Shown here one piece after another: positions 1 to 56,565 of a stretch of DNA of 64,000 nucleotides (the stretch's first letter is position 1; each line of letters starts with the position of its first letter). This stretch comes from Candidatus Poribacteria bacterium (GTDB lineage: Bacteria > Poribacteria > WGA-4E > PCPOR2b). The notes under the pieces are model-generated. The model was not told the origin of the DNA, did no database searches, and saw only the letters and a program-made list of their open reading frames with translations. The position numbers and the translations under genes are program-made. The stretch covers positions 2,144,001-2,208,000 of the forward strand of contig OZ244587.1 in the NCBI GenBank assembly GCA_965218095.1, in the 5' to 3' direction.

Positions 1-386
1 GTAAATCCATGATGCACCAAGCGAATCCATTCAGAACCTTGAACAATGAGGAAAACTATGCCAAGAAGCCCCGTCACGAAAAGCCAGTTTCTGAGCTCTT
101 TCTGACGGTCTTGCCGAATGGCTCGCAGTGCCTGAAACATCGTATAGCCGCTTAAGAGCAGGATGATTGTATTCAGTCCGGTCACACCGATGGGCAAGCG
201 AACGTCGATCTGCGAAGGCGGGGGCCAGGTCACACTCCCCAAACGAAACACAAGGAACGTCCCAATCAGCCCCGCGAAAAACATGATTTCGGCACCCAAG
301 AGTATCAGCATCGCTAACCGGGCATTACTTATCGGTCGGGTTTCCCCTTCGGCGTATGGGTGTGATGGATGTTCTGAGTTATTCAT
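1..386 (-). CDS. ctaE: cytochrome c oxidase subunit III (3' end lies outside the window)
   Basis: Hand translation from ATG at 386: MNNSEHP...NARLAMLILLGAEIMFFAGLIGTFLVFR...GLNTIILLLSGYTM...LGIVFLIVQGSEW, showing COX3 motifs (E-x-MFF, NT..LL.S, FL..Q..EW). Not in the supplied ORF track. Confidence 0.92.
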   Translation of the reverse strand, partial: MNNSEHPSHPYAEGETRPISNARLAMLILLGAEIMFFAGLIGTFLVFRLGSVTWPPPSQIDVRLPIGVTGLNTIILLLSGYTMFQALRAIRQDRQKELRNWLFVTGLLGIVFLIVQGSEWIRLVHHGF

Positions 387-39860: not shown

Positions 39861-40613
39861 GTGCGAGCAATCAAAATTCTGCTTTTTAGTTGTTTCATGT
39901 TCCTCTCTTTTTCTCTGACCGTTTTAACAACCTATTCGTTGCTTGAAACCGCCAATCTTGATTGGGACCCCATCCGGGTTGGTGAGACTCTAACCTACAA
40001 CGTCAAAATTGCGCGCTTGCCTGCTGGAACACAAGTTACAAAGGTTGTTGAAGAAACCGTGCTGAATGGACAGCCGGTTTATTACTTCACTTCGGAAAGG
40101 GAGACCGGGAGTGTCTTTGGAAAACTGTACCATTTTCGAGACTGGATAGCAAGCTATGTCACGACCGATCAGCTATATCCACTCAGGCATCTGAAAGATT
40201 TAGAAGATGGGAAATATCGAGCGCATGTCGAAGTCGATTTTGATCATGGCAGGGGAATGGCTCAATACACCAAAAATCAGCATAACAAAGCACTTGAAAT
40301 CCCAATTGGTATACAGGATGAACTGTCGATGGTTTATTTCCTGCGCTCCAAAAAGTTGAGGGTGGGGCAGACCTATAGATTTCCGGTACTGGTCAGGGAT
40401 AAGTGCCAACAGATCACCCTTACAATCCATCGTCGCGAAATGGTGAAAACAAAGGCATTAGGCTGCGTGGAAACATTGGTTTTGCGCACATCGCACGGCT
40501 ACCTGATGTGGCTCACAAATGATGACCGCCGTATTCCTGTTCGGATCGAAGCTGAGATACCTGTTATTGGTAAACTGGTCGGCACATTAGAGAAAGTTGA
40601 TTTTATCAATTAG
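39861..40613 (+). CDS. DUF3108-like exported protein
   Basis: GETLTYNV, QDELSMVYFLR, WLTNDDRRIPVRIE motifs. Confidence 0.78.
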   Translation: MRAIKILLFSCFMFLSFSLTVLTTYSLLETANLDWDPIRVGETLTYNVKIARLPAGTQVTKVVEETVLNGQPVYYFTSERETGSVFGKLYHFRDWIASYVTTDQLYPLRHLKDLEDGKYRAHVEVDFDHGRGMAQYTKNQHNKALEIPIGIQDELSMVYFLRSKKLRVGQTYRFPVLVRDKCQQITLTIHRREMVKTKALGCVETLVLRTSHGYLMWLTNDDRRIPVRIEAEIPVIGKLVGTLEKVDFIN

Positions 40614-40623
40614 GGTAGGGAAC

Positions 40624-43600
40624 GTGATCGATCTCCTGCATCAGACAGACACCTATCAATCGCTTGTTGAAAGCCTCACCGCCCAATTTTCTTACTCAAA
40701 CAGAAGTGCATCGGATAGGCAAATAGATTTCCCCAAACCCTGGTTGCGAGGTTTGCATGGTGCATCTATTTCTTATTTGCTGAGTGCATTGGCAGCGGAT
40801 TTTTCCGACAAATCCTTCCTCATCGTCCTTCCGACGCAGCATGAAGCTGAGAAGATCATTCAAGATCTGCCCGCTTATCAATTTGAGGGAGCACATCTCT
40901 TTCCGGAATGGCAACATTTTCTTTATGACGGTATCTCCCCAACTCCAAAAGTCGTAGCAGAGCGGATGATCTGCTTGCATCAATTGTTGAAAGAAGAACA
41001 CTCTGTTATCATCACATCGATTAAAGCATTGATGCATAAAATCCTGCCCAAATCAGTTTTAGAATCTGCCTTCCTGACCCTCCACATCGGTGATGAGCTC
41101 GACCCCGACAAAGTTGTGGAACAACTCCTCCGCAGCGGCTATCAGCGTGTGGATCTTGTTGAAGTCAAGGGCGAGTTTGCATGTCGTGGTGACATTCTGG
41201 ACGTTTACCCGCTGACCACCGATGCCCCCGTCCGCATCGAGTTCTTTGGCGATGAAATCGACGCCATTCGATCATTTGATCCGGCTTCACAGCGATCTCT
41301 CTCCGGTGGAATTGATAACGGATCCGATGCGATCACGTTAAGTCCGGTGCGCGAAATCATTCTGGCGCCGGAAGTCCTTGATCAGTGGAAAACCCACGCC
41401 AATGAGTTGGTTCAAAACAACGAATCGCCAAAGTATCGAAACGCGGTCAATGAGATCACACAACGTCTCGAAATGAGAATGGATCTGGAGGGGCTCGAAG
41501 CCTTGCTCCCGATGTTGTATTCAGATACGAGTCTGCTCACGGATTTCCTCCCTCCACAGACTGTTGTCTTCCTGATTGAACCTGTCTGGATGGCGCGTGA
41601 AGGGGACCAGATCATCGAAAGCACGGGAGCTCTTTACGAACGAAAATTGGCATTCGATCAGTTCATGGTGCCGCCTGATGAGACATTTGCGTCGTTTCAA
41701 TCGGTAATCTCAGTTTTGCGGGATTATCCACTTGTTCGTACCTCGTTGACCCTACCGACTCCCGGTGGGAATGAACAGATTAAAGAAATTGATTTCGGTA
41801 TAGGTCCGCTCGGTCTTCCACACAGTAATTATCAGATGGTTATGGACACGATCAAAGGGTGGACTGACGAGGGCTATTTCGTCAACTTCTTCTGTGATAA
41901 TCCAAAGGGTGCAACGCGGCTAAACAATATCCTGACAGATCGAGACTTGCCGGCGACCCAAACTGCCGTGAGCGTTGGCAGCATCAGCGAGGGATTTCTC
42001 AGTGAAACGCTCAAGCGCATTGCGCTTTCTGAACATGAGTTGTTTGGACGCGAACACCGTCGGCGCCGCAAGACTCCCTTCAAGGAAGGCGCGCCCATCC
42101 TGAGCCTAATCGATCTCAAGGAAGGGGACCATGTGGTGCACGTCTCGCACGGAATCGGTCTCTACGCGGGGATTCGTCGTCTTGATATCGATGGCAAGCC
42201 GCAGGACTTTCTCGTGTTGAACTATGCGGATGGGGATAAACTCTATGTTCCAACCTACCAAATCGATCTGGTGCATAAGTATATCGGTGGGAAAGAGGAC
42301 GGAAAACTACGGCTTGATAAGCTCGGTGGTACATCGTGGCAGCGCGTTAAAGCCAGAGTGAAAACCTCGATTGAGCAGATGGCGGAAGAACTGCTTGAAC
42401 TTTATGCGATCCGCGAATCCCGCGACGGCTACGCCTTTACAACAGATGCCCCCTGGCAGCAGGAGTTTGAGGTTCTTTTTCCCTATGAAGAAACCCCAGA
42501 TCAGCAAAAGGCGATTGAGGAAGTTAAGGCGGATATGGAACGCCCTCGATCCATGGATCGCCTCATCTGTGGAGATGTGGGCTACGGAAAGACTGAAGTG
42601 GCGCTGCGAGCGGCGTTCAAAGCGGTGATGGCAGGGAAGCAGGTCGCCCTTCTTGCCCCAACGACCATCCTCACGCTGCAACACTTTAATACGTTCCAGC
42701 AGCGGTTCGACCCCTTTCCCGTTCAGGTGGAAATGCTCAATCGCTTCCGAACCGATAAGGAAGGGAGAATGGTCAAGGAGGAGCTGGCAAACGGCACGGT
42801 CGATATTGTGGTCGGCACCCACGCCTTGCTATCAAACAACATCAAGTTTCACGATCTCGGGTTGCTCGTGGTTGATGAAGAGCATCGTTTTGGCGTCAGG
42901 CACAAAGAGAAGATTAAACAGATGAAGCAGTCGGTTGATGTATTGACCTTGACAGCGACGCCAATTCCGCGTACACTACACATGTCTCTCGTCGGCATCC
43001 GCGATTTCAGCATAATCAATACGCCTCCTGAAAATCGCCTGCCGATCGAAACGTACGTCATGCAGTATAATCCCGACGTGGTACGAGATGCGATTTTGCG
43101 CGAAATGGACCGCGGTGGACAGATCTTTTTCGTTCACAACCGCGTCCAGAGCATCGCAAGCATTGCGACCGCAATCCAGGACCTCGTGCCACAAGCCCGC
43201 GTTTGCGTGGCACATGGGCAGATGCCTGAACGTCAACTGGAAAAGGTGATGATGGATTTCATCAACTACAAGTACGACATCCTGGTTTGCACCATGATTA
43301 TCGAGTCCGGTGTAGATATTCCAAACGTCAACACGATTCTGATTAATCGCGCTGACGCGCTTGGACTCGCGCAACTTTACCAGTTGCGTGGTCGGGTTGG
43401 GCGTGATCAGTATCAGGCTCACGGCTACCTTTTCTACCCACCAGGGCGGGCAATCACGGAGGGCGCCCAAAAGCGCCTGCGCGTTATTGAAGAGTTCACC
43501 GATCTCGGTTCCGGTTTCAAGATTGCCCTGCGGGACCTTGAGATTCGTGGAACAGGTAACATCCTTGGTTCGGAGCAGCACGGTCATATCATCGCTGTGG

Positions 43601-44106
43601 GTTACGATATGTACTGCAAGCTTCTTGAGGAAGCCGTACAAAAGCTCAAAGGCGAAGAAGTCGAGGAAACGGTCGAAACGCGAATCAACCTGCCCATCGA
43701 AGCCTATCTGCCCGACGAGTGCGTGCCTGACAGTCGGCAGAAGGTCGCGCTCTATAAAAAGATCGCTGCCTTGAAGACAGAAGTGGATCGGAAAGAACTT
43801 GAAGAGGAGATGGTGGATCGATATGGCAAAATCCCAGAACCGGTTCAAATGCTCCTCGAAATTGCCGATTTGAAACAGCTCAGTCAGCGGCTCGGCATCG
43901 ATGGAATCGTCGCGAGTGGGGAGGGCATCAAAATCACGTTTGACAAAGAAAAGCTAGGTGTTGAACCCCGTAAGCTCATTCAACTCGTCCAACAAGATCA
44001 ACGGATCTCACTCTCGCCTCCTGCGCGCATAGCGATCAGTATGAGAGGGCTAGAGGGGAAAACGCTCCTACTCGCACTCAAGAAGATCTTAGGTCGGTTA
44101 ATGTGA
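40624..44106 (+). CDS. mfd: transcription-repair coupling factor
   Basis: GEFACRGDILD, VVH..HGIG, FPYEETPDQ, GDVGYGKTEVA, DEEHRFG, TATPIPRT, QLRGRVGR, DLEIRG.GN, TRCF C-terminus. Confidence 0.98.
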   Translation: MIDLLHQTDTYQSLVESLTAQFSYSNRSASDRQIDFPKPWLRGLHGASISYLLSALAADFSDKSFLIVLPTQHEAEKIIQDLPAYQFEGAHLFPEWQHFLYDGISPTPKVVAERMICLHQLLKEEHSVIITSIKALMHKILPKSVLESAFLTLHIGDELDPDKVVEQLLRSGYQRVDLVEVKGEFACRGDILDVYPLTTDAPVRIEFFGDEIDAIRSFDPASQRSLSGGIDNGSDAITLSPVREIILAPEVLDQWKTHANELVQNNESPKYRNAVNEITQRLEMRMDLEGLEALLPMLYSDTSLLTDFLPPQTVVFLIEPVWMAREGDQIIESTGALYERKLAFDQFMVPPDETFASFQSVISVLRDYPLVRTSLTLPTPGGNEQIKEIDFGIGPLGLPHSNYQMVMDTIKGWTDEGYFVNFFCDNPKGATRLNNILTDRDLPATQTAVSVGSISEGFLSETLKRIALSEHELFGREHRRRRKTPFKEGAPILSLIDLKEGDHVVHVSHGIGLYAGIRRLDIDGKPQDFLVLNYADGDKLYVPTYQIDLVHKYIGGKEDGKLRLDKLGGTSWQRVKARVKTSIEQMAEELLELYAIRESRDGYAFTTDAPWQQEFEVLFPYEETPDQQKAIEEVKADMERPRSMDRLICGDVGYGKTEVALRAAFKAVMAGKQVALLAPTTILTLQHFNTFQQRFDPFPVQVEMLNRFRTDKEGRMVKEELANGTVDIVVGTHALLSNNIKFHDLGLLVVDEEHRFGVRHKEKIKQMKQSVDVLTLTATPIPRTLHMSLVGIRDFSIINTPPENRLPIETYVMQYNPDVVRDAILREMDRGGQIFFVHNRVQSIASIATAIQDLVPQARVCVAHGQMPERQLEKVMMDFINYKYDILVCTMIIESGVDIPNVNTILINRADALGLAQLYQLRGRVGRDQYQAHGYLFYPPGRAITEGAQKRLRVIEEFTDLGSGFKIALRDLEIRGTGNILGSEQHGHIIAVGYDMYCKLLEEAVQKLKGEEVEETVETRINLPIEAYLPDECVPDSRQKVALYKKIAALKTEVDRKELEEEMVDRYGKIPEPVQMLLEIADLKQLSQRLGIDGIVASGEGIKITFDKEKLGVEPRKLIQLVQQDQRISLSPPARIAISMRGLEGKTLLLALKKILGRLM

Positions 44107-44138: not shown

Positions 44139-45434
44139 ATGAAAACATTTCGTTTGTTCGTCCTCATCCTATTCATTGCGCATCTTGGAATTAATTCTGC
44201 ACTTGCGCGAGGGTTTGATCAGATTATCGCTTATGTCAACGATAGTGTGATTACCAAATGGGAGCTCGACAGCGTTGTGAAGCAAAAAGCGCTGGAACTC
44301 CAGCAACTCTACCGTTTCAGCGAGCGCGAAGCAATGCAAAGGGCGGAACAGGAACGTGCTAAACTTCTTAATCAATTGATCCGTCAGATGCTCCTTGTCG
44401 AAACGGCATTAACGCTAAAAATTGAGATTACCGAAGCCGAGGTAGACCAATATGTCCAGAACTTTAAGGATCAGTACCAGATCGACACAGAGGCGGCGCT
44501 CATTGAAGCATTGAACAAAGAAGGCTATACCCTTATCGCTTTCTGTGAGCAAGCCAAGCGTAACTTGATGGCGGAACGACTTGTGATGCAGCGCATTCTG
44601 CCAAGGCTCCAGATCCGGGATTCGGATGTGCAGAAGTTTTTTGAAGAAAATCGCGCGCAATTCACAACTAAGGCGGACAAAGTGCATCTTCGACATATCT
44701 TCGTTGCCTTCAAACCGACCGAGGTGGATCAACAACTTGCGCTCCAAACAATCCATTCAATCATTCAGGAAGTCAAAGCCGGCAAAGATTTTGAGACGCT
44801 TGCGCGGCGCTACGCTGGCAGTGAGCATAGAAAAGAAAGCGTTGGGACATTGACTGAACTGCCGGTTGCTGAGGTGAGCAAGCTTTCTGATACCTTCCGC
44901 AGTGCACTTTCAACACTCAATGCCGGCGAGCTCAGTGAGCCGGTTGAAGGGGTTGATGGGCTTTACCTGTTCAAAGTTGAAGACAGAGATGAGCGAATAA
45001 TCAAGTTTCGTTATCTTGTTGTCGGTCTGAAGCCGAGCGAGGAAGCAATTCAGGCAGCCTATCAACGTGCAGATCGCCTCCTCCAGAAGTTAAATCAAGG
45101 CGAAGACTTCAATCTGCTCGCTCAGCAATATTCTGAAGATCTGGAAACGAAAGCCAATAGCGGAGATCTCGGGATTCATTCGCTCAACGAGCTAAGCCCC
45201 CAAACGCGGAAAATTATCGAAGGGCTTTCTATCGGGAAATACAGCACACCGGTCAAAACGACACACGGCTTACATATTTTCAAGATCGATAGCCGCGCTG
45301 CTCCGGAGTTGAGCGAAGCCGAAAAGAACCAGATCCGGGTTATGCTGCGGCAGCAAAAATTTCAAGAGGAATGGAACGTTTACACCGATATGCTTATGGA
45401 GCATTCCTTCATTAAGATCAAACCGATTGAGTAA
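44139..45434 (+). CDS. surA: SurA-like periplasmic chaperone / parvulin PPIase
   Basis: Signal peptide, IIAYVNDSVIT SurA N-domain, two rotamase domains (HLRHIF..DFETLARRY; DFNLLAQQYSED...GDLG...GLHIFK). Confidence 0.85.
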   Translation: MKTFRLFVLILFIAHLGINSALARGFDQIIAYVNDSVITKWELDSVVKQKALELQQLYRFSEREAMQRAEQERAKLLNQLIRQMLLVETALTLKIEITEAEVDQYVQNFKDQYQIDTEAALIEALNKEGYTLIAFCEQAKRNLMAERLVMQRILPRLQIRDSDVQKFFEENRAQFTTKADKVHLRHIFVAFKPTEVDQQLALQTIHSIIQEVKAGKDFETLARRYAGSEHRKESVGTLTELPVAEVSKLSDTFRSALSTLNAGELSEPVEGVDGLYLFKVEDRDERIIKFRYLVVGLKPSEEAIQAAYQRADRLLQKLNQGEDFNLLAQQYSEDLETKANSGDLGIHSLNELSPQTRKIIEGLSIGKYSTPVKTTHGLHIFKIDSRAAPELSEAEKNQIRVMLRQQKFQEEWNVYTDMLMEHSFIKIKPIE

Positions 45435-45446
45435 AGGAAAGGAAGG

Positions 45447-48400
45447 ATGGAAAGGAGGGAAAAAAGGGGAAAGGGGAAATGGAAGGATGTCGAAGGAAAT
45501 GGAAGATATTTAATTTACCGGTTTCCGTATTCCCTCATTTTCCAATTGCTGAATTGTTGCTTTTGTCTCAGGTTTTACGCTTCACGTTTCACGTTTTACA
45601 GTTCTGTCCCAAGAGCCCCGATCACAAATCGGAATCCGCCCCGAGCCATCGGGGTTTCACGCCTTACGTTCCATACCTTGCCTTTCACGCTTTACATCTT
45701 ATCCATCACGATTCTCACTTTCTGTTTAATCTTGCCAACCGGCGAATTAGCTGCTCAAGAACCTCCCCCGCCGATCGCTGATGACGATGCCTCCGAAACG
45801 AAGACTGAGGAGGCATCAGAAACCCCTCCAGACACAGATCAATCCGTACCCGAGGCGTCCACTGATGACGATGCAGCCGAGCCGTCACCTGAAGACGCAT
45901 CAGAGCCTCCTCCAACTACAGATCAACCCGCACCTGAAGAACCCGCTGATGTCAGCAGGAGTCTCGATCCAGCAAACATGTCTCCCGAAGAAGGTGAGCT
46001 CATTGCGAAGGGCGATGATCTGAGTTTTCATAACAACCTGATCCAGATCCATGGCAATGGGCTGATCAAATACGAAGAGATTGTCCTTTACGCTGACCAT
46101 ATCTGGGCGGATTTCAATGAAAATGTTATGCGTGCCGCGGGAAACGTGCGTCTCCTGATTGAAAACGAAGAAACCTTTGCAAACGAGTTAATTTACAACA
46201 TTGCAACGAAGAAAGGGATCATACGCGAAGGATTTACATACAGCGATCCATGGTACTATCGCGGCTCTGAAATCTTCAAGGTCGAAGATGATGAATCCTA
46301 CATCCGCGGCGGTTCACTGACGACATGTTCTCTCAAACACCCGCATTTTTACTTCAGTGCATCGCAGATCATTGTCAAGATTAACAAGGAACTGATCGCC
46401 AAGCATGTTGTCCTCCGGGTAGGAGGCATCCCGCTTTTCTATTTTCCCGCCTATCGCCGGGATCTGCGCCAGGAAGATAAAGTTGCGAAAATAATCGTTA
46501 AGATCGGGATGGGCAGTTATCAGGGGGCGTTCCTCAGCGTTATCTTGCCACTTTCGCGGGCCCATCGATTTAACGGTGCACTTCTGTTTGATCAGTCGAG
46601 CCGCCGGAGACGTGGCGCAGGCTATGATGGGGGATACCGCCTGAACGATGTTAAGTTCCAGGAGATCCTTATCCCATTACCGCCCGGGGTAACACCGAGC
46701 GATCGGACAAAGCTCGAAGAAAAAGCGGAGGAACTATCGGATCGGTTACAGGGGAAGTACGACAGATATAAGCTGAGGCAGATTTTCCTAGAATATAAGA
46801 TTAACGAAGAAGACATCGCAACCGGGCGCGAAAAAGCGGAAGAAGTCTACACGCAACTGCAAGCGGAAGACGCAGATTTCGCAGAGATTGCCGAGGATAA
46901 CTCTACCCATCAGGACACACGCTACCAAGGCGGAGATATGGGATTTTTGGTGCGCAGAGAGCGCGATAAGGAAGGCGAGCTTAGACTCGATCCAATCTTA
47001 GAGGAAGCAGTCTTTCAACTGCAACCAGGCGAAATCACTCCAATTTTGCGGACAGAGTTTGCCTTCCATATCCTGACAGTAGATCGTGAGCTCGATGTGT
47101 ACGATGAACGAGAAATTCAGGTTCGTCGGATCGACATCGCAATCGAGGCAAGCCAGGAAACCCGGGATGCCATTCAGAATACGGCAAAGGAAATCCATGC
47201 GCGGGCAAGCGTAGGAGAACCTCTAGCGCAATTGTCCATGGAATATGAAGATGCTGAATTTTCGGAAGTCAACGAGGGCCAGGGGTTGCTGTTAAATGAG
47301 ATGGATCGGCGTTGGCAATACTCGGTGAAGCGGCTTGAGCAGCCCGGCGAAATAACGCGGACAGTGAATACGGACCGAGGTGTCTACCTTTTCGAGCTAA
47401 TCGAAAAGGAACCAACGCCGAGCTTTGAGGAGGTGGCTCGCCAGTTTGAAGCGGAGTGGGAAACGTGGAAGACGGAAGTTGGGATACTAGAAGAACCGGA
47501 AGACGAGATAGGTGGACGAGGAGAAAAAGTGGATGGAGGGACGGAAGAAGGGAAGGAGGAAAGAAAGAAAGGAGGAAAGAAGGGAAGGTTGGAAGAGGAG
47601 AAAGAAGGAGACAAGGAAGATAAAGGCGGACAAGGAGACAGGAATACAGGAACACAAGAAGATAATACGCAACACGCAATACACAATACGCAGGACGATG
47701 ATATAGCAGGTCAAGCGGACGAAGAAAAGCAGGAAGAAGGGGTGCAAGTTTATCAACAACACGGCTTCCAAGGACGCTGGGAAACGCCGCGTGAAATTTA
47801 CTCGCAGACGCAGCGACTCGATCGCGGTGAGGCGAGCCGGGTCACCAAAACCCGTAAGGGATTTCATGTGATCAAGGTGGATAAAAAACGCACCTACAGA
47901 GGAGACATCTATTTCTATACCAATGATGAATTTTCATTTAATCGCCGGAATCCGTTCAAAACCGGACAACGATGGACTTTGCGGTGGGGGCACCGACACG
48001 CTATCTATACTCCCTGGGACAGCCGAGAGAAAGGACGACGGCCTGTGAGTTTTGTGGGGCGTGTGGCGTGGCGAGCAAAGGATTTCAAAGAGGAGGGGTT
48101 TGGAACCAATGAATCTACGGTTAATTCTTTTGGTATGCTCACATGGGGGGCGGCCTTTAAACCACTCGATTATGATGATAGAGACGAGGACGGAAATTTG
48201 AAATTTTCGTTCAAGACAATCGGGGAGTTCCTAGGGCGTTTTCAGATTAATCACACCTTGGATCTCACAGGTGAGGGGACAACAACCCTGCAAAAGCTAC
48301 CTGCACTCGAACTTTCACTTTCACGCATGCGCTTGAGTCGGCTCCCTGTGTTCAAAACCCTCAACTCGGGGTTGACCAAAGTTGCAGACATACTACACAC

Positions 48401-49559
48401 CGATTTTCCGATCGTTTCGATGGTTGGTATCCCGACGCTTGAAGACATGAGCTTCGATCTCGATTTGGGCCTCGGCAACTTTTTCCGTGAGAGGTTTCGA
48501 GAGAAGGAAGACATCTTCTTACAAACCATGGACCTCGGTTTTGACCTTCGTAAACAATCGACACTACAAGTCATACCGAACCGCGAGTTACGCCTCGATC
48601 TAGATTTCGACACGAACCTCATCTGGCATGACAAAGACCAGGAAGGAAATCGGAATATTTTCCGTGGTGTGTATAGCACGCGGGTGGCTGCCAGGAATAC
48701 TCTTTTTCGGATTTATGACATCAGTTTCATTCCGGGGGCGCGTCGTATGCGCCATCAAATCAACTCAAGGCTGACATTTGACTTTGCGCCGCCTGTTGAC
48801 AGAGAAGATAGTCCGATGCTCTATCCGTTTGGCCCAAGCGTCTACTTCTTTGAAAGAAAAAGGCTCTCCTACAACTTTGATACCAGCATCGAAGTAAAGA
48901 CTCGTCGCAGCAGATCTGCCCTCCGTGTACTTCATTTTGATACACGGATATCGACAGATTTCACGAGATCTGAGGCATTAGGCGAGCGGAGATATATACC
49001 GATTGAAAGCAGGCTAACGATTGTCCCGTTGGCAAGCCGAAATTTGAACATTAGAATCAAGACGACACACGATCCGAATGAGTCACTAATTGATGGGAAG
49101 CGGTTCAAACAGGTCGGTTTCCGATCCAACATGAGTTACCGGCGGAAGAAATGGAATGTAACGCTCGGAAATGCCTTTACTAAAAGGACACGACGCGCCT
49201 CTCGAAGTATCACGGGGAGTTTTCGATACCGTCCAAGCCCCTTATTGGAATTTGACTTCAGCACCAATTATGACTGGATTGAAAAGCAGTTCTACTCGCA
49301 AGGTATAACGATACGACGAAATTTGCACGGTTGGAATATGACGATTAGATGGAACCGGATTGGGATTAAGCGAGACCCTCCCTTTGATAATGTACGGCAA
49401 GACTTCACATTTCAGGTGAACCTGATCGCGGAGCCTGCTGCTTCAGTTGGGCTTGGCTATGACGCCACGACAGACACATGGGGATTCCGCAGCCTGCCCG
49501 CTGGCGTGCCTTACAACGCCTTTGGCGCCGGGAACTCACTGGGACGGTCGTACTTCTAA
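45447..49559 (+). CDS. lptD: LPS-assembly protein LptD-like, with inserted parvulin-like domains
   Basis: OstA-like N-domain (LYADHI...AAGNVRL...TTC...PHF.FSA..I...GGIPLFYFP), amphipathic beta-strands, C-terminal F; follows surA. True start uncertain. Confidence 0.8.
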   Translation: MERREKRGKGKWKDVEGNGRYLIYRFPYSLIFQLLNCCFCLRFYASRFTFYSSVPRAPITNRNPPRAIGVSRLTFHTLPFTLYILSITILTFCLILPTGELAAQEPPPPIADDDASETKTEEASETPPDTDQSVPEASTDDDAAEPSPEDASEPPPTTDQPAPEEPADVSRSLDPANMSPEEGELIAKGDDLSFHNNLIQIHGNGLIKYEEIVLYADHIWADFNENVMRAAGNVRLLIENEETFANELIYNIATKKGIIREGFTYSDPWYYRGSEIFKVEDDESYIRGGSLTTCSLKHPHFYFSASQIIVKINKELIAKHVVLRVGGIPLFYFPAYRRDLRQEDKVAKIIVKIGMGSYQGAFLSVILPLSRAHRFNGALLFDQSSRRRRGAGYDGGYRLNDVKFQEILIPLPPGVTPSDRTKLEEKAEELSDRLQGKYDRYKLRQIFLEYKINEEDIATGREKAEEVYTQLQAEDADFAEIAEDNSTHQDTRYQGGDMGFLVRRERDKEGELRLDPILEEAVFQLQPGEITPILRTEFAFHILTVDRELDVYDEREIQVRRIDIAIEASQETRDAIQNTAKEIHARASVGEPLAQLSMEYEDAEFSEVNEGQGLLLNEMDRRWQYSVKRLEQPGEITRTVNTDRGVYLFELIEKEPTPSFEEVARQFEAEWETWKTEVGILEEPEDEIGGRGEKVDGGTEEGKEERKKGGKKGRLEEEKEGDKEDKGGQGDRNTGTQEDNTQHAIHNTQDDDIAGQADEEKQEEGVQVYQQHGFQGRWETPREIYSQTQRLDRGEASRVTKTRKGFHVIKVDKKRTYRGDIYFYTNDEFSFNRRNPFKTGQRWTLRWGHRHAIYTPWDSREKGRRPVSFVGRVAWRAKDFKEEGFGTNESTVNSFGMLTWGAAFKPLDYDDRDEDGNLKFSFKTIGEFLGRFQINHTLDLTGEGTTTLQKLPALELSLSRMRLSRLPVFKTLNSGLTKVADILHTDFPIVSMVGIPTLEDMSFDLDLGLGNFFRERFREKEDIFLQTMDLGFDLRKQSTLQVIPNRELRLDLDFDTNLIWHDKDQEGNRNIFRGVYSTRVAARNTLFRIYDISFIPGARRMRHQINSRLTFDFAPPVDREDSPMLYPFGPSVYFFERKRLSYNFDTSIEVKTRRSRSALRVLHFDTRISTDFTRSEALGERRYIPIESRLTIVPLASRNLNIRIKTTHDPNESLIDGKRFKQVGFRSNMSYRRKKWNVTLGNAFTKRTRRASRSITGSFRYRPSPLLEFDFSTNYDWIEKQFYSQGITIRRNLHGWNMTIRWNRIGIKRDPPFDNVRQDFTFQVNLIAEPAASVGLGYDATTDTWGFRSLPAGVPYNAFGAGNSLGRSYF

Positions 49560-50743: not shown

Positions 50744-50968
50744 ATGAGCTTATTAGCAGTCAGAAGAATTTACGAAAACGGGGTTGTACACCCTTTAGGC
50801 CCACTTCCGAATATTCCCCAATCTCAAGTAATCATCACTTTTTTAGTCGATGAACCTGCCGGCGATTTTGAAACATTCTCAGTCAAGGCAGGAAAATACT
50901 TCAACCATAAGGAGTACCTATGCCCGACGAATTCATCGACATCCGTGGCGCATGCGAACATAACCTGA
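50744..50968 (+). CDS. DUF104/AF2212-like antitoxin-type small protein, possibly degenerate
   Basis: AVRRIYENGVVHPLGPL...VIITF pattern; 3' end overlaps the uvrA start. Confidence 0.5.
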   Translation: MSLLAVRRIYENGVVHPLGPLPNIPQSQVIITFLVDEPAGDFETFSVKAGKYFNHKEYLCPTNSSTSVAHANIT

Positions 50969-53900
50969 AAAATATCGATCTCAAGCTTCCCAAAGATAAG
51001 CTCATTATCTTCACCGGTGTCAGCGGCTCGGGGAAGTCATCGCTAGCATTCGATACAATCTATGCAGAAGGACAACGTCGCTATATCGAATCCCTCTCCG
51101 CGTATGCCCGTCAGTTTCTAGGGCAACTGGAAAAACCCGATGTCGATTTCATCGGTGGGCTCTCCCCCTCAATCTCAATCGATCAGAAGTCAACGGGCAA
51201 TAACCCTCGTTCAACTGTCGCAACCATCACGGAAATCTACGATTACCTGCGCGTACTGTTTGCGCGTGTTGGCACGCCGCATTGTCTGCGGTGTGGCCGA
51301 CCTGTGGGCGTCCAAACAGTGGAGGCGATCATCGACCAGATCGTGAATCTGCCGCAGCGGACGCGGATTCTGATCCTTGCGCCGATCGTCAGTGGGCGGC
51401 GTGGCGAGTACCGCGACGATCTTGAGGATGCACTCAAGGCGGGGTTTGTGCGTGCCCGGATTGATGGACAGATCTACGACCTGTCGGACGAAATTCAGCT
51501 TGACCGGAACCAGCGCCACAACATTGAGATCGTGGTTGACCGGATTATCATCAAACCGGATGGCCGCAGCCGCATCGCAGAAGCCGTTGAAACCGCACTG
51601 CGCATGGGGGAAGGTCGCTTGATTGTCAACATCATTGAAGGACAGCCGGAGGCCGAGGATCTCTTGTTCGGGGTGGACTATACCTGTGTGAATTGCAACA
51701 TCAGCTATGAACCGCCTGCCCCACGTCAGTTTTCCTTCAACAGTCCTGCGGGGATGTGCTCAACCTGCAAGGGGCTCGGCACGAAAACGGAGATCTCCCC
51801 CGATCTGGTCGTGCCTGATCCGACCAAATCAATTCGGGAAGGAGCGATTATCTTTTGGGGACGACTTGACACGCTGCAGACACAGCACCTCGCCGTTAGC
51901 CTGGCACAACACCTCGACTTTAGCCTCGACGCTCCATGGGAACAGTTAACCGATGAGCAGAAGCGGGTTATTCTTTATGGCGCCGGCAGGGAGAAGATCC
52001 CCTTTGTCTATCAATCCCGCCGAAACCGTCGCTATAAGTATGAGGCAGCATTTGAAGGCGTGATTCCTACCGAAGAACGGAAATACTTCCAGGCAACTTC
52101 GGAGATCATGACGCGGTATCTTGCAAAATACATGGTCTCTGGCGTCTGCCCGGATTGCAACGGAACTCGACTCAAGCCAGAGGTAAAGGCCGTAACAATC
52201 GCCGGGAAATCGATCCTGGATGTGGTCGAAATGGCGGTTGGGGATTGCTTTAAGTTCTTCGAGAAACTCCAACTGCCGGAGCGCGAGGCATTCATTGCGA
52301 CAGGTCTGTTGAAAGAGATCAAGGGACGCCTCTGGTTCCTGATGAATGTTGGGCTGCACTACCTCACTTTGGACCGCACCGCCCCGACGCTCTCAGGGGG
52401 AGAATCGCAGCGCATTCGGTTAGCCAGCCAGATCGGGACAGGCTTGCGCGGCGTGATCTATGTCCTCGATGAGCCAAGCATTGGCTTGCACCCACGTGAT
52501 AATGCGCACCTTCTCACAACGCTCAAGCACCTGCGCGATCAGGGCAACACCGTGGTTGTCGTCGAGCACGATCAAGATACGATGTGGGCAGGAGATGTGA
52601 TCGTCGATTTCGGGCCGGGGCCGGGAATCAAAGGCGGGGAGATTGCCGCAATTGGTTCTCCACAAGAAATTGCTGAGAATTCGACTTCACTGACAGCACA
52701 ATATCTCCGGGGGGAACAGCAGATCGAGATTCCTGCTGAACGCCGCTCAATTGGAAATCGCTGGCTTGAGATCTGCGGCGCACGTCACAATAATCTCAAA
52801 GACATTGATGTGCGAATCCCAATCGGGGTTTTCACCTGTGTGACAGGGGTCAGTGGTTCTGGCAAAAGTTCGTTGATTAACGATATTCTATACCAGGCGC
52901 TTGCTCGAGATCTGATGAAAGCACACGCGCAGCCGGGAGAGTATGGGAACATCCGGGCAATTATCTTCAAGGAAAAGAAGAACGAGGGAGAAGAAGTCCT
53001 GGAGTTCAGAGCCTGCCCCGATCTATCGGGGAGTTCAGGGCTTCAGGAGTTCATTGATGTAGCATCCGCAATTGATAAGGTCATCGACATTGATCAGACG
53101 CCGATCGGACGGACACCGAGATCGAATCCCGCTACCTACACCAAAGTATTTGACCACATCCGTGCGCTTTATGCAGATCTCCCTGAGTCGAGATTGCGCG
53201 GTTACAAGCAGGGACGGTTCAGTTTCAATGTCAAGGGTGGTCGATGCGAAGCCTGTGAAGGCAATGGTTCAAAGCGGGTCGAGATGCACTTTATCGCCGA
53301 TGTGTGGGTCAGGTGCAATGTTTGTCAGGGCAAGCGTTATAACGACGAAACGCTGCAAGTCAAATACAGAGGGACAAGCATTGCCAATGTTCTCAATATG
53401 GATGTGCAAGAGGCTTTGGAACACTTTGCAAACGTCCCGAAGATCGCGAAGATTTTACAAACGCTGCACGACGTCGGGTTGGACTACATCAAACTCGGAC
53501 AACCTGCCCCCACGCTTTCCGGCGGGGAAGCCCAACGGATTAAGCTAGCACGTGAACTTGCCAAACGGAGTACCGGCAAAACGCTCTACATTCTCGACGA
53601 GCCCACGACCGGATTGCACTTTGACGATGTGAAAAAACTGCTTGAGGTGCTGCACCAGCTTGTCGATGCGAGCAATACTGTTGTCGTCATTGAGCATAAC
53701 CTTGAGGTGGTCAAGACTGCGGACTACCTCATCGATCTTGGACCCGAAGGTGGCGAAGAGGGAGGCTATGTCGTCGCAGTTGGCACACCAGAAGAAGTGG
53801 CGGTGGTCGAGGCGTCGTATACGGGGCTAGTGTTGAAGCCTGTATTGAATCAGGGAAGGAAGGAAGGAGGGAAGGAGAGTTCAAGAGTGCAAGGGTTCAG

Positions 53901-56565
53901 AGCCTGCCCCGATCTATCGGGGAGTTCAGAAGTTCAATATGACTCAATGAATTCATGGACTCCTGAACCCATGATACAAGAATCCACAGCGCCTTATCAG
54001 TTCGCTCGCAACGACGAGCAAAAATACATTTCCGTGCATGGGGCGCATGAACACAATCTGAAAAATATCAACGCAGACATTCCGCATCGGAAGCTCACAA
54101 CATTCACCGGCGTGAGTGGTTCAGGGAAATCGTCCCTGGCATTGGACACGATCTATGCGGAGGGGCAGCGACGCTACATCGAATCGCTCTCGGCGTATGC
54201 GCGGCAGTTCTTAGGGCAGTTGGAAAAACCAAAGGTCGAGAAGATTGAGGGGCTCTCGCCGGCGATTGCAATTGAGCAGAAAGCGCCAAGCAAGAATCCA
54301 CGTTCCACGGTCGGAACAGTCACGGAGATCTATGATTACCTGCGGGTGCTTTATGCACGGGTTGGAATAGCGCACTGCCCGCAGTGTGGGGCGGAAATCG
54401 GTGTGCAATCTGTACAGCAGATCGTTGATAAGATCATGGCGCTGCTAGGTGGAACAAGGCTTTACGTCCTGTCTCCGCTGAGCTTGCGGAGCAATGAGGA
54501 CTACCCTGATGCCTTCCGTCGTTTGCAGCATGATGGCTATGTCCGTGTCGAAATCGACGGGGAGATTTACACCATCGATCAGGCACCGAAGATCGGAAAG
54601 AGCATCAAGCACGATGTCAAGATCGTCGTTGATCGCTTGGCGCTTCAACCCGACGAGCGCAGCCGGCTTACCGAAGCGGTCGAGACCGCAACGCAGCAGA
54701 GTGGCGGCACTGTGGCAGTGGGCGTTATGGCTGAAGGAGACAGAGAACTCTCCGAGACAAGGGAGCTAGAGAAAAACAAGAGTTCAGGAGTTCAGGAGTC
54801 ACGCATCACGCATCACGTTTTCAGTGAGCATTTCGCCTGTGTCCCGTGTGGATTGAGTTTCCCGGAGTTGACGCCGCGTCACTTTTCATTTAACAGCCCA
54901 TTAGGGCAGTGCGAGCGGTGCGAAGGGATCGATGTAACACTCAGTGGGCGTGTGATTTGTAACGAATGTAAAGGAACGCGCATCCAGCCGTTAGCGCGTG
55001 GAGTTACCCTCAGTGGAAAAACCATCGCGGAAGTCACAGCGATGTCGATCGGTGATGCGGCGAACTTCTTCCATTGCCTGGATTTGTCAGCGCACCAGAT
55101 GGAGATTGGTCGTGAACTCCTCAGAGAGATTCAGAATCGGCTTCGATTTCTTGTCGATATTGGCTTGCATTACTTGACGTTAAGCCGTCCCGCACCAAGC
55201 CTCTCCGGCGGTGAGATGCAGCGCATCCGTTTGGCAAGTCAACTTGGCAGTGGTCTCACAGGGGTGACGTACATTCTTGATGAACCGAGTATCGGCTTGC
55301 ATCACCGAGATCAGGAGCGGCTTCTCGGGGCATTGAAGCATCTGCGCGATCTCGGGAACAGCGTCCTGGTCATTGAGCATGATCTGGAGACCATGCTGAC
55401 ATCGGATCATATCCTCGATTTTGGGCCTCGGGCAGGCAAGTTGGGCGGAGAGATTGTCGCCGCCGGTTCACCGACTGAAATTAAACAGAGCGAAAAATCG
55501 CTGACCAGCGGGTATCTCACAGGAACGCTCAAGATCGAGACACCGACGAAACGGCGAAAAGGCAAAAGAGAGTGGCTTGAGATGGTCGGTGTCCAAACCA
55601 ATAACCTCAAGAAGATCGATGTCAAAATTCCGTTGGGGACACTGACATGCGTGACAGGGGTTTCTGGGTCTGGGAAAAGTTCGCTAGTCGAGGAGACACT
55701 TTACCCTGTTCTCGCTTCCAACCTGAATCGGACGTGGATGCGGACAGGGAAGTATAGACAGGTCCGCGGGCTGGAATACCTTGACAAAGTGATCAACATC
55801 GATCAGCAGCCCATCGGGGATACGCCGCGATCCAATCCCGCCACTTATACCGATCTCTTCACCAAGATCCGCTATCTCTTCGCCGATCTGCCTGACGCCA
55901 AAGTGTACGGCTTCGATTCACGTCGATTCAGTTTTAACCAGAAAACAGGACAGTGCGAAACGTGCCGCGGGCATGGCTACAACAAGATTGAGATGCACTT
56001 TCTCGCGGATGTATGGGTGAAATGTGATGTGTGCGGTGGGACGGGCTATAACCACGAAACGCTGCAGATCCACTACAAGGGCAAAAATATCGCCGATATT
56101 CTGGGGATGACGGTGCAGGAAGCGCTAGATCACTTCCACAATGTGCCGAGCATCCGCAAGCCTTTACAGATGCTGTACGATGTCGGCCTGGATTACATTG
56201 AACTGGGACAATCCGCGACGACGTTCTCCGGCGGCGAAGCGCAGCGTGTCAAGCTGGCGCGAGAATTGGCGAAACGGAGCACCGGCAGAACAATCTACAT
56301 TATGGACGAACCGACGACCGGCTTGCATTTTGATGATGTACAAAAATTGCTGGTGGTGCTCAACCGCCTGGTGGACAAAGGCAACACGATCGTCATCATT
56401 GAACACAACATGGACGTGATTAAATCTGCGGATTGGATTATTGACCTCGGTCCTGAAGGCGGGGATGAAGGTGGGACGGTGGTCGCTATGGAGCCACCAG
56501 AGGAAGTGGCAACGGTAGAGGGTTCACATACCGGGCGATTTCTGCGGAAGGTTCTCACGACATAA
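50920..56565 (+). CDS. uvrA: double-length excinuclease ABC subunit A (two fused UvrA units)
   Basis: Four GVSGSGKSS Walker A motifs, four (L/F)SGGE signatures, two DTIYAEGQRRYIESLSAYARQFL and two RSNPATYT blocks. Confidence 0.97.
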   Translation: MPDEFIDIRGACEHNLKNIDLKLPKDKLIIFTGVSGSGKSSLAFDTIYAEGQRRYIESLSAYARQFLGQLEKPDVDFIGGLSPSISIDQKSTGNNPRSTVATITEIYDYLRVLFARVGTPHCLRCGRPVGVQTVEAIIDQIVNLPQRTRILILAPIVSGRRGEYRDDLEDALKAGFVRARIDGQIYDLSDEIQLDRNQRHNIEIVVDRIIIKPDGRSRIAEAVETALRMGEGRLIVNIIEGQPEAEDLLFGVDYTCVNCNISYEPPAPRQFSFNSPAGMCSTCKGLGTKTEISPDLVVPDPTKSIREGAIIFWGRLDTLQTQHLAVSLAQHLDFSLDAPWEQLTDEQKRVILYGAGREKIPFVYQSRRNRRYKYEAAFEGVIPTEERKYFQATSEIMTRYLAKYMVSGVCPDCNGTRLKPEVKAVTIAGKSILDVVEMAVGDCFKFFEKLQLPEREAFIATGLLKEIKGRLWFLMNVGLHYLTLDRTAPTLSGGESQRIRLASQIGTGLRGVIYVLDEPSIGLHPRDNAHLLTTLKHLRDQGNTVVVVEHDQDTMWAGDVIVDFGPGPGIKGGEIAAIGSPQEIAENSTSLTAQYLRGEQQIEIPAERRSIGNRWLEICGARHNNLKDIDVRIPIGVFTCVTGVSGSGKSSLINDILYQALARDLMKAHAQPGEYGNIRAIIFKEKKNEGEEVLEFRACPDLSGSSGLQEFIDVASAIDKVIDIDQTPIGRTPRSNPATYTKVFDHIRALYADLPESRLRGYKQGRFSFNVKGGRCEACEGNGSKRVEMHFIADVWVRCNVCQGKRYNDETLQVKYRGTSIANVLNMDVQEALEHFANVPKIAKILQTLHDVGLDYIKLGQPAPTLSGGEAQRIKLARELAKRSTGKTLYILDEPTTGLHFDDVKKLLEVLHQLVDASNTVVVIEHNLEVVKTADYLIDLGPEGGEEGGYVVAVGTPEEVAVVEASYTGLVLKPVLNQGRKEGGKESSRVQGFRACPDLSGSSEVQYDSMNSWTPEPMIQESTAPYQFARNDEQKYISVHGAHEHNLKNINADIPHRKLTTFTGVSGSGKSSLALDTIYAEGQRRYIESLSAYARQFLGQLEKPKVEKIEGLSPAIAIEQKAPSKNPRSTVGTVTEIYDYLRVLYARVGIAHCPQCGAEIGVQSVQQIVDKIMALLGGTRLYVLSPLSLRSNEDYPDAFRRLQHDGYVRVEIDGEIYTIDQAPKIGKSIKHDVKIVVDRLALQPDERSRLTEAVETATQQSGGTVAVGVMAEGDRELSETRELEKNKSSGVQESRITHHVFSEHFACVPCGLSFPELTPRHFSFNSPLGQCERCEGIDVTLSGRVICNECKGTRIQPLARGVTLSGKTIAEVTAMSIGDAANFFHCLDLSAHQMEIGRELLREIQNRLRFLVDIGLHYLTLSRPAPSLSGGEMQRIRLASQLGSGLTGVTYILDEPSIGLHHRDQERLLGALKHLRDLGNSVLVIEHDLETMLTSDHILDFGPRAGKLGGEIVAAGSPTEIKQSEKSLTSGYLTGTLKIETPTKRRKGKREWLEMVGVQTNNLKKIDVKIPLGTLTCVTGVSGSGKSSLVEETLYPVLASNLNRTWMRTGKYRQVRGLEYLDKVINIDQQPIGDTPRSNPATYTDLFTKIRYLFADLPDAKVYGFDSRRFSFNQKTGQCETCRGHGYNKIEMHFLADVWVKCDVCGGTGYNHETLQIHYKGKNIADILGMTVQEALDHFHNVPSIRKPLQMLYDVGLDYIELGQSATTFSGGEAQRVKLARELAKRSTGRTIYIMDEPTTGLHFDDVQKLLVVLNRLVDKGNTIVIIEHNMDVIKSADWIIDLGPEGGDEGGTVVAMEPPEEVATVEGSHTGRFLRKVLTT
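53004..53038. repeat. family B palindrome (CCCCGATCTATCGGGG) inserted in frame in uvrA, copy 1
   Basis: 35 bp identical to 53895-53929; translates as FRACPDLSGSS. Confidence 0.85.
53895..53929. repeat. family B palindrome inserted in frame in the uvrA inter-unit linker, copy 2
   Basis: GTTCAGAGCCTGCCCCGATCTATCGGGGAGTTCAG; the core also occurs intergenically at 59274 and 60827. Confidence 0.85.

Follow-up and report, generated by a model that had tools for sequence, protein, structure and literature searches.

Organization of the locus

We analysed a stretch of 64,000 nucleotides from a Candidatus Poribacteria bacterium (GenBank assembly GCA_965218095.1, contig OZ244587.1, positions 2,144,001 to 2,208,000 of the forward strand), hereafter called the window, in which an open reading frame (ORF) of 1370 amino acids (45447..49559, + strand, stop codon included in the coordinates) codes in one uninterrupted frame for a homologue of LptD, the outer-membrane translocon of lipopolysaccharide (LPS). 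Within the beta-barrel of this protein, after four predicted barrel strands, we identified an insert of approximately 416 amino acids (residues 400-815) that contains three parvulin units, the first of which (A) is split around the other two (B and C); we hold this anatomy with high confidence. An initial annotation of the window, made from the sequence alone, had placed three SurA-like parvulin domains at 46640..47891, as an insert of about 415 residues after about four barrel strands. Our study agrees with it in position and length: nucleotide 46641 falls at residue 399/400, just past ...GAGYDGGYRL, nucleotide 47891 ends residue 815, just past ...KGFHVIKVDKKR, and the secondary-structure assignment made with DSSP places four strands before the insert.

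All the features of this frame lie on the + strand. The start of the gene is ambiguous, being either an ATG at 45447, with a purine-rich Shine-Dalgarno-like stretch just 5' of it, or a TTG at 45678, at a signal-peptide-like segment; the relatives align to the product only from about residue 65-81 on. This segment, read from the sequence, is a hydrophobic stretch that ends in ...ELAAQ (residues 78-102, 45678..45752). It is followed by an acidic, proline-rich, low-complexity linker whose length varies greatly among relatives (residues 103-184, 45753..45998), and then by a beta-jellyroll of the LptD/OstA type (residues 185-347, 45999..46487), recognized by a hidden Markov model (HMM) of canonical LptD, by hhalign, by PRK03761 and by OstA_2. 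The linker is encoded by an 84-bp unit repeated 2.1 times (45776..45951, 74% matches). Barrel strands 1-4 occupy residues 348-400 (46488..46646), and the fourth of them continues into parvulin A as its first strand. The N-terminal piece of A (beta1 and alpha1, residues 401-440, 46647..46766) is a strand followed by a helix at 417-434, with E406 at the position of the first histidine. Parvulin B (residues 441-553, 46767..47105), with Q445 and H541 at the histidine positions, is matched by Rotamase and by PrsA 6vj4, and parvulin C (residues 554-656, 47106..47414), with R561 and Y647 at these positions, is matched by Rotamase_3, Rotamase and SurA's P1 domain. Parvulin A resumes with its helix alpha2 (SFEEVARQF..., residues 657-680, 47415..47486; helix at 660-677), which aligns with an F..LA..YS helix of deep lineages of the phylum. 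It goes on with a hypervariable, low-complexity loop rich in Glu, Lys and Gly (residues 681-766, 47487..47744), which stands in place of its Gly-Gly-Asp-x-Gly loop, and ends in a C-terminal piece that carries H807 (residues 767-815, 47745..47891) and whose last strand (805-822) continues into barrel strand 5. The rest of the barrel, with 24 DSSP strands, runs to ...GRSYF (residues 816-1370, 47892..49556) and includes a helix in a long inter-strand connection (residues 967-982, model 788-803, 48345..48392), at the site where the proteins of another class of the phylum carry a fourth parvulin.

Directly upstream of lptD there is a surA-like gene of 431 amino acids (44139..45434, + strand) that codes for a SurA N-terminal domain and two parvulin domains. 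Its product is matched by SurA_N_3 (51.6 bits), SurA_N and SurA_N_2, by Rotamase in two stretches (122 bits) and, over residues 1-427, by the NCBIfam SurA model PRK10770 (104 bits, below its cut-off of 394). A match to a parvulin tandem is found just upstream of lptD in at least 28 of the 41 genomes of the same order, as well as in genomes G041 and G042 of the other class; in genome G067 the ORF at this place is a different one, not surA-like. The gene mfd (40597..44106) lies upstream of the surA-like gene, and downstream of lptD there is a tandem double uvrA in a single ORF of 1881 amino acids (50920..56565, + strand). Inside this uvrA frame, a stretch of 30 nucleotides with an inverted-repeat core, translated as RACPDLSGSS, occurs twice in frame (at nucleotides 53008 and 53899), and the exact 30-mer has no further copies in the genome.

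The host protein is a divergent LptD orthologue

The genome consists of a single contig of 6.35 Mb and contains only one homologue of LptD. An HMM that we built from 11 canonical LptD proteins and ran on the 6650 ORFs of at least 150 amino acids in the genome gave this ORF as its sole match (E 6.5e-76), with model positions 51-221 aligned before the insert (121.8 bits) and positions 279-686 after it (136 bits). In a profile-profile comparison with hhalign, 37 members of the family aligned with the 11 canonical LptD proteins over 642 columns (probability 100%, E 1.8e-48), and the jellyroll region, of the N-terminal OstA/LptD_N type, was aligned column by column. A large C-terminal barrel of the LptD type was recovered by hhalign, by our own HMM and by the structural comparisons with Foldseek and VIA described below. 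The motifs TTC...PH and R.L(H).W are common to the window protein and canonical LptD.

It is important to consider that curated models fail on this protein. Neither the protein nor its C-terminal 555 residues are matched at E <= 0.1 by the Pfam models LptD (PF04453), LptD_2 (PF19838) or LptD_N, and genome-wide scans with LptD and LptD_2 gave nothing at E <= 1. OstA_2 reached E 0.051 in the window protein, and the NCBIfam LptD model PRK03761 aligned with residues 190-337 at 17.7 bits (E 7.8e-4), far below its cut-off of 683. The initial annotation had expected a domain scan to return both OstA/LptD and Rotamase; the Rotamase half of this expectation was borne out, but the Pfam LptD models were silent, and OstA_2 gave a weak match. 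Among the 37 aligned relatives, at E <= 0.05, LptD_2 is matched in seven (best E 1.2e-5) and OstA_2 in eight (best E 0.0039). A profile of the family compared with the sequences of the PDB found parvulin-type chains and no LptD among the best 60 of 63 matches, and in a protein atlas the family's own two clusters were returned at 0.98, with LptD clusters at 0.81, rated as leads only. Because the direct family scans are empty, homology is shown by the profile-profile alignment and the self-built HMM.

Additional support was obtained by searching 1.84 billion representative proteins with the barrel part alone (residues 816-1370), which yielded 37 proteins at E <= 0.001. Among the 18 of them that were scanned, 12 match LptD_2; 11 of these are ordinary-looking LptD proteins, most of them also with LptD or LptD_N, and the twelfth is P0122, below its cut-off. 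Rotamase domains are present in six of the 18 (P0121, P0122, P0125, P0128, P0142 and P0154), so that P0122 belongs to both groups, and one more protein has LptD_N/OstA_2 only. We also observed that P0150 (1014 amino acids) and P0152 (1294 amino acids), two canonical-scoring LptD proteins from metagenomes without a Rotamase match in the scan, have about 285 and about 500 residues, respectively, between their LptD_N match and the start of LptD_2; therefore, large LptD additions of other kinds exist elsewhere.

The genomic context is that of an LPS exporter, with LpxC (290 bits), LptF (280 bits), LptG (250 bits), a protein similar to LptD_N/LptA (53.7 bits) and a match to LptE that exceeds its cut-off (28.2 bits), so that this single-copy LptD homologue occurs together with LPS synthesis and the Lpt transport pathway. 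The only LptE match of the genome is located outside the window (G000:C1:26485-26883, locus L028), in an open frame of 333 amino acids, longer than LptE proteins, which have about 170-200 residues. We conclude that the ORF at 45447..49559 is the LptD orthologue of this organism and belongs to a divergent branch that curated models miss; by analogy, its putative role is the insertion of LPS into the outer leaflet together with LptE.

With regard to the conserved cysteines, the N-terminal TTC cysteine is present in the window protein, and the pair is incomplete. The cysteine of the canonical 'LHCW' motif, invariant in the 11 aligned LptD proteins, is a glycine in the window (NLHGW, residues 1299-1303, 49341..49355). 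Of the other main-class sequences shown, all seven have Asp or Val at this position, and the cysteine is found only in the four that belong to the other class. In E. coli LptD, the equivalent cysteines form an inter-domain disulfide that links the jellyroll and the end of the barrel; judging from its residues, the window protein may be incapable of forming such a bond.

Three parvulin units, one of them split, form the insert

The Pfam family Rotamase (PF00639) matches three separate stretches of the ORF above its gathering score. Parvulin B (nucleotides 46779-47111) is matched with 64.3 bits over profile positions 6-96. Parvulin C (nucleotides 47100-47400) is matched by Rotamase_3 with 25.8 bits (cut-off 22.5) and by Rotamase with 22.0 bits (cut-off 21.7). 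The third match (nucleotides 47373-47891, 24.5 bits) covers profile positions 60-96 only and corresponds to the closing 49 residues of the insert, which are A's C-terminal piece. For the N-terminal piece, Pfam finds nothing in the window protein or in that of G041. A match, and a weak one, was obtained only in G067, where this piece has 40 residues and reaches 17.1 bits (E 0.011), below the cut-off, at Rotamase positions 2-36; its C-terminal counterpart, of 68 residues, covers positions 35-97 with 57.1 bits. The two pieces in G067 match complementary parts of the profile and therefore represent a single domain cut in two by B and C.

The alignment of deep lineages leads to the same assignment. 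All nine deep-lineage sequences have a canonical, loop-free stretch F..LA.QYS....GGD(I/L)G(Y/F)...W at the place where the window protein has SFEEVARQF...(86-residue acidic loop)...HGFQGRWE. The split of A around B and C, as it was read in the initial annotation, is thus supported both by this alignment and by the complementary profile halves of G067.

We predicted the structure of the insert with AlphaFold, on its own and as part of the full-length protein, and both models have the same order of elements: strand 4 of the barrel leads to a strand and a long helix of A, then to unit B and to unit C, followed by a helix, the disordered loop and a strand-helix-strands arrangement, the last strand of which enters barrel strand 5. 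The split of A falls between its first and second helix. The insert-only model has a mean predicted local distance difference test (pLDDT) value of 80.2 and a predicted template modelling (pTM) score of 0.65; 290 of its 451 residues reach a pLDDT of at least 90, the folded parts being above 90, whereas confidence is low at both ends and in the acidic loop. The topology check that the initial annotation had proposed thus returned parvulin folds, with the halves of A bracketing B and C. All three units have the parvulin fold of a four-stranded sheet and four helices, which in the case of A is recognized indirectly, from the DSSP order of elements and from the split profile of G067; together they form a module of about 330 structured residues.

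Structural comparisons of the insert gave, as the best matches, a two-parvulin peptidyl-prolyl isomerase of Bacteroides fragilis (8hm3_B, Z 15.8, 206 residues, root-mean-square deviation (rmsd) 5.2 A), SurA P1 (1m5y_C, Z 13.9, and 2pv1_A, Z 13.6, with 97-98 residues aligned and rmsd 1.9 A), PrsA (6vj4, Z 11.5, 82 residues, rmsd 1.3 A) and Pin1 (Z about 10.8), along with more chains of SurA, PrsA and Pin1 and with PpiD. No single-domain PDB chain aligned to A alone, the lists being filled by the B/C pair, which says nothing against A. In the profile search, B and C align with SurA residues 169-370, as tandem parvulins inside a host domain. It is important to note that the term 'SurA-like', used in the initial annotation, is right for the parvulin part but not for the N-terminal chaperone core, which occurs only in the separate upstream gene: none of SurA_N, SurA_N_2 and SurA_N_3 matches the 1370-residue protein. 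The insert shares only about 22% identity with the SurA next to it and is therefore no recent copy of that protein.

The fusion occurs throughout the phylum

In the same order, which comprises 41 genomes of four families, 40 genomes have a homologous, stop-free frame of 1233-1488 amino acids with 55-74% identity; in G005 this frame is divided between two contig ends. The exception is G006, an assembly of 730 contigs, with a weak parvulin match only (E 6.3e-5). In a sample of the phylum, 121 of 121 genomes gave a match at E <= 1e-10, with listed open frames of 1113-1450 amino acids, and many of these genomes are single-contig assemblies. Five deep lineages, two of another class and three of other orders, all have the insert in one frame of 1120-1319 amino acids that spans both flanks. 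A word-indexed protein search returned 358 proteins at E <= 0.001, and the 120 that were listed all carry the three Pfam domains of the Rotamase clan. Rotamase is also matched in 37 of 37 aligned relatives, and the residues at the junctions of the insert are conserved among relatives.

These results provide evidence that the gene is real and contiguous and that the insert is not a misassembly, since it occurs phylum-wide and is conserved like the barrel. A misassembly or artefactual gene fusion was also considered as a candidate explanation in its own right and was ruled out by the presence of the same stop-free frame in 121 of 121 phylum genomes. Copies of a genomic repeat were looked for in the unusual N-terminus and in the acidic loop, with 20-mers taken every 5 nucleotides from 45440-45760 and 47400-47780, and none of them recurs in the genome. 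The rotamase-bearing relatives that carry a name all belong to Poribacteria, and P0128 is 56% identical to the protein of G041, a genome of this phylum. Our searches met no case of this LptD-parvulin design outside Poribacteria, the other phyla not having been surveyed systematically. In public annotations these proteins are labelled 'hypothetical protein', 'peptidylprolyl isomerase', 'parvulin-like peptidyl-prolyl isomerase' or 'PpiC domain-containing protein (Fragment)'. Pathway reconstructions based on curated LptD models would therefore count Poribacteria as devoid of LptD.

Catalytic histidines, conservation and the acidic loop

Special attention was given to the two histidines of the parvulin active site, whose positions were tallied in 46 aligned sequences; none of the three domains keeps the catalytic pair. 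In the window protein, the residues at the two positions are E406/H807 in A, Q445/H541 in B and R561/Y647 in C, which agrees with the substitution of the first histidine in every unit reported by the initial annotation. The first position of A holds Glu in 43 of the 46 sequences, other residues in three and His in none, and the second position holds Arg in 32 and His in 10. In B, the first position is Gln in 34, Glu in seven, Arg in four and His in one, while the second is His in 38; B also keeps the GGD motif in most sequences. In C, Arg occupies the first position in 38 sequences and His in two, with six other residues found once each, and the second position is Tyr in 34 and His in eight. 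The second histidine is therefore also absent in C, and in A as well in most relatives. From these substitutions, we infer that the parvulin module is probably non-catalytic.

The insert is well conserved. The mean identity to the window protein among 36 relatives is 0.67 for the N-terminal piece of A, 0.63 for B, 0.59 for C, 0.60 for helix alpha2 of A (657-680) and 0.56 for its C-terminal piece, compared with 0.72 for the jellyroll, 0.65 for the barrel after the insert and 0.13 for the acidic loop. In the nine deep-lineage sequences, the parvulin parts have an identity of 0.24-0.34 and the barrel of 0.33. As judged from these alignments, the insert is constrained like the rest of the protein and the acidic loop is not. 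The loop has 30-124 residues across 37 sequences of the order, with pLDDT below 50, and is absent in the nine deep-lineage sequences, all of which have GGD(I/L)G there. Its DNA is purine-rich (AT skew 0.47 and GC skew 0.28 in the bin 47500-47999) and contains, at 47522-47588, short imperfect purine-rich tandem repeats with a period of 16-20. From its sequence, the loop looks like a slippage-driven expansion within a former Gly-Gly-Asp-x-Gly motif.

The barrel model and the side of the membrane

For residues 180-1370 (model number plus 179 gives the protein number), the AlphaFold model has a mean pLDDT of 68.7 and a pTM of 0.49. The structures that Foldseek places on top are those of LptD from Shigella, Yersinia, Klebsiella, Pseudomonas, Neisseria and E. 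coli, with E-values from 8e-10 to about 2e-6 and probability 1.00. The VIA alignments with LptD have Z of 13-15 over 420-456 residues (9rpt_A: Z 14.8, 447 residues, rmsd 6.3 A), and the alignment of LptD core chains begins at model residue 165-170, which is about residue 225 of the chain. Porins align at a similar Z to the last 300 residues; Z alone is therefore not specific to LptD, and it is the coverage and the sequence profiles that are specific.

Barrel strands 1-4 are assigned by DSSP at model residues 171-177, 181-192, 196-205 and 209-231. There are four strands before the insert, six from the insert to the second parvulin site and 18 after it, 28 in total, and the LptD residues that flank the insert are, in the DSSP assignment, the exit to the turn after strand 4 and the re-entry at strand 5. 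The jellyroll of LptD is periplasmic. As all three strand counts are even, the model suggests that both insertion sites, that of the insert and that of the second parvulin, are on the periplasmic side. The initial annotation had proposed a periplasmic turn, and the even parity in the model (4 strands before and 24 after) goes along with it, although parity alone is no proof.

An apparent strand exchange between B and C and a permuted fourth parvulin

In both models, B ends in a long strand (539-551) that only a turn of two residues, Y552-D553 in the window protein and mostly Tyr-Gly among the relatives, separates from a long first strand of C (554-565), so that the two make up a single hairpin. 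The last and first strands of a parvulin sheet are neighbours; therefore, the first strand of C would take the place of the first strand in the sheet of B. Nearly all single-domain parvulin chains align with 95-100 residues of the insert model and yet span it from about 55 to 270. The Pin1 chains, for instance, map residues 54..163 to insert-model 56..269, and, if the ends are gapless, Q445 of B would fall on Pin1 His59 and Y647 of C on Pin1 His157, the catalytic histidine pair of human Pin1. PrsA 6vj4 aligns with insert-model 76..166, that is, with the part of B that begins at the first helix and ends at the last strand, and so lacks the first strand. Taken together, this points to a mutual exchange of first strands that would make B and C interlocked folds and not independent beads; in an equivalent view, the models suggest a permuted parvulin inside C and C inside A, as a nest of three levels. 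If the swap is real, the pairs at the histidine positions become R561-H541, Q445-Y647 and E406-H807, and no unit has both histidines. The initial annotation had described B and C as nested in A; both are indeed parvulin units inside A, but in the model they are not independent of each other, given the apparent exchange of first strands.

The proteins of the other class (G041, G042, P0128 and P0169) carry a fourth parvulin at a second barrel turn, equivalent to residues 967-982 of the window protein, which keeps only a helix at this site. In G041 (ORF L023) the fourth parvulin occupies residues 784-926. Its order is permuted, with the helix, the core and the last strand first and the first strand and its helix last, and it matches Rotamase positions 17-96 with 70.6 bits. 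This unit is collinear (E 5e-18, 32% identity) with the stretch that goes from the first helix of B, through the hairpin, to the first strand and helix of C; therefore, the evolutionary unit straddles the B/C border. At the sequence level, the fourth parvulin suggests an exchange of strands between B and C independently of the models.

Proposed role and alternative explanations

The explanation that we favour is that of an LptD with a periplasmic binding arm made of interlocked parvulins, and, taken as a whole, we regard its chances as evenly balanced. According to it, the chain would leave the barrel at the turn after strand 4, build the three-parvulin module and re-enter as strand 5; the outer parvulin A would grow directly from two barrel strands, with B and C sitting in its split. 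The module would hang in the periplasm beside the N-terminal jellyroll, not far along the chain from the strand-1 edge of the seam, and would act as a tethered, non-enzymatic chaperone or scaffold arm that holds an unfolded or partner polypeptide. The candidate clients would be the long barrel of LptD itself during its assembly by BAM (the beta-barrel assembly machinery), LptE, LptA and other arriving outer-membrane proteins. The assignment of this role to the module, which is drawn by analogy, is tentative and falls somewhat short of an even chance. A binding arm is preferred to an enzyme because no domain has the histidine pair and because the best structural match is the non-catalytic SurA P1. 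The P1 domain of SurA is inactive as an isomerase and binds peptides, in particular those rich in aromatic residues, modulating the chaperone activity. E. coli LptD is described as depending principally on SurA, a chaperone that bears parvulins (PMC3747590). The insert of the window protein is not a simple replacement of SurA, because the cell has a soluble SurA too.

A more specific version, which we consider doubtful, is that the three-level nest (A containing C, and C containing the permuted B) would be fixed at the periplasmic rim of the translocon, adjacent to the strand-1 side of its seam, as a resident, non-enzymatic docking site for unfolded beta-barrel segments. If this were true, the LPS exporter of Poribacteria would help to fold itself, the delivery of outer-membrane proteins would possibly be coupled to the place of LPS insertion, and the permuted unit copied to a second periplasmic turn in one class would show that the barrel tolerates and selects such modules.

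Several points weigh against the binding-arm explanation. The window protein is below the Pfam cut-offs of LptD, LptD_2 and LptD_N. The full-length model is only moderately confident, with a pLDDT of about 25 at residues 259-349, and it has 28 DSSP strands compared with the 26 of solved LptD barrels, so that one strand pair may be split or extra. The membrane side, the exchange of strands and the place of the module with respect to the jellyroll are read from DSSP strings and from the first and last aligned residues of the models. The adjoining surA-like gene supplies a chaperone in trans, which weakens the need for one in cis. In addition, the strict need of parvulins for their histidines in catalysis is debated, and for this reason the loss of the histidines does not prove a loss of activity.

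Among the alternatives, the one that survives best is a rigid brace, in which the parvulin block would fix the jellyroll, and with it the periplasmic Lpt bridge, relative to the barrel and replace the inter-domain disulfides or small accessory lipoproteins of other bacteria. The apparent strand lock between B and C and the continuity of A with two barrel strands would make a stiff assembly, and the C-terminal 'LHCW' cysteine is lost in the window protein and the seven other main-class sequences shown, which keep the TTC cysteine. However, the four sequences of the other class keep the C-terminal cysteine and nevertheless carry both the insert and the fourth parvulin, so that the insert and the cysteine loss are uncoupled, and a strut would not need three peptide-binding folds conserved at the level of the barrel; we therefore consider a brace unlikely.

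A prolyl isomerase that is active on the prolines of LptD itself or on passing outer-membrane proteins would explain the three Rotamase-family matches over the Pfam cut-off, the second histidine that B has in 38 of the 46 sequences and its GGD motif, kept in most of them. It is improbable nonetheless, given that no domain has both histidines, that in the order of the window a disordered loop takes the place of A's Gly-rich one, and that the nearest single-domain fold match is SurA P1, an inactive domain.

Still less probable is a display of the parvulins to the sponge host or the environment from an extracellular loop. The variable acidic loop could be a surface feature, but the number of strands between the periplasmic jellyroll and the insert is even (four, with 24 after it), the second parvulin site of the other class is six strands further on and hence on the same side, and the periplasm is where the known parvulin chaperones of diderm bacteria work; we give this explanation a very small chance. 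Finally, an artefact, either a misassembly or frameshift that fused a parvulin gene into lptD or an ORF that is not real, could be invoked from the failure of the Pfam LptD models and from the low-complexity stretches of odd composition, but its chance is practically nil in view of the stop-free frame in 121 of 121 phylum genomes, many of them single-contig, of the 358 database proteins at E <= 0.001, all 120 listed with Rotamase, and of the conserved junction residues. We also looked for an absence of the rotamase fold, for a misassembly and for flanks foreign to LptD, which the initial annotation had named as contrary to its proposal, and none of them was found.

Comparison with known systems

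LptD is essential, is a target of antibiotics and counts among the outer-membrane proteins that are most difficult to assemble, and Poribacteria are a mostly sponge-associated phylum. Our literature search, which left most subscription journals outside, found no published description of an LptD-parvulin fusion, of an LptD from Poribacteria or of a permuted parvulin, in line with the remark of the initial annotation that it did not recognize the architecture. The window protein is thus a real, phylum-wide and apparently undescribed variant of the LptD machine. New here are the apparent exchange of strands between B and C, the fourth, permuted parvulin of the other class and the acidic loop in A within the order of the window; the split, strand-exchanged and permuted topology is apparently undescribed for parvulins. 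The phylum-wide fusion puts parvulin folds permanently on the LPS translocon and joins a folding-helper module to the LPS export machine, so that nature provides a ready-made test of what parvulins do for LptD, be it binding, timing or bracing. It would also show that the assembly of a barrel of the 26-strand class is compatible with a soluble module of over 400 residues in one of its periplasmic turns.

Compared with canonical LptD (for example 4q35, 4rhb, 5iv9 and 9rpt), the window protein has in common an N-terminal jellyroll followed by a very large barrel, and it differs in about 416 extra residues after strand 4, in the absence of the conserved C-terminal cysteine, in scores under the Pfam and NCBIfam cut-offs and in 28 DSSP strands in place of 26. 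SurA (1m5y, 2pv1) and the two-parvulin isomerase of B. fragilis (8hm3, 8hm4) also have tandem parvulins nested in a host domain, the N- and C-terminal parts of which enclose them; they are the best fold matches, and in them, as in the window protein, at least one domain is non-catalytic. In the case of SurA there is, in addition, a functional link to LptD assembly, according to PMC3747590. The LptD insert differs from SurA in that it lacks the SurA core, its host domain is itself a third parvulin, its units B and C apparently exchange their first strands, and the module is covalently part of an outer-membrane barrel.

Other barrels offer more distant parallels. The plug domain of ushers (PapC, FimD) is a soluble domain in the middle of the barrel sequence, which leaves and re-enters on the periplasmic side and gates the pore; it is a precedent for a soluble domain in a barrel, with a different fold and job and a single domain, and no homology is claimed. 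The Omp85 proteins (BamA, TamA) are barrels with their own periplasmic, polypeptide-handling POTRA domains, which have a different fold and are N-terminal and not inserted in a turn. In PrsA, PpiD and trigger factor, an isomerase fold is likewise inserted into another domain and is often catalytically dispensable, and both PrsA and PpiD were found among the fold and sequence matches of the LptD insert. Those proteins are soluble or membrane-anchored and have helical scaffolds, whereas in the LptD of Poribacteria the scaffold is a parvulin inside a barrel.

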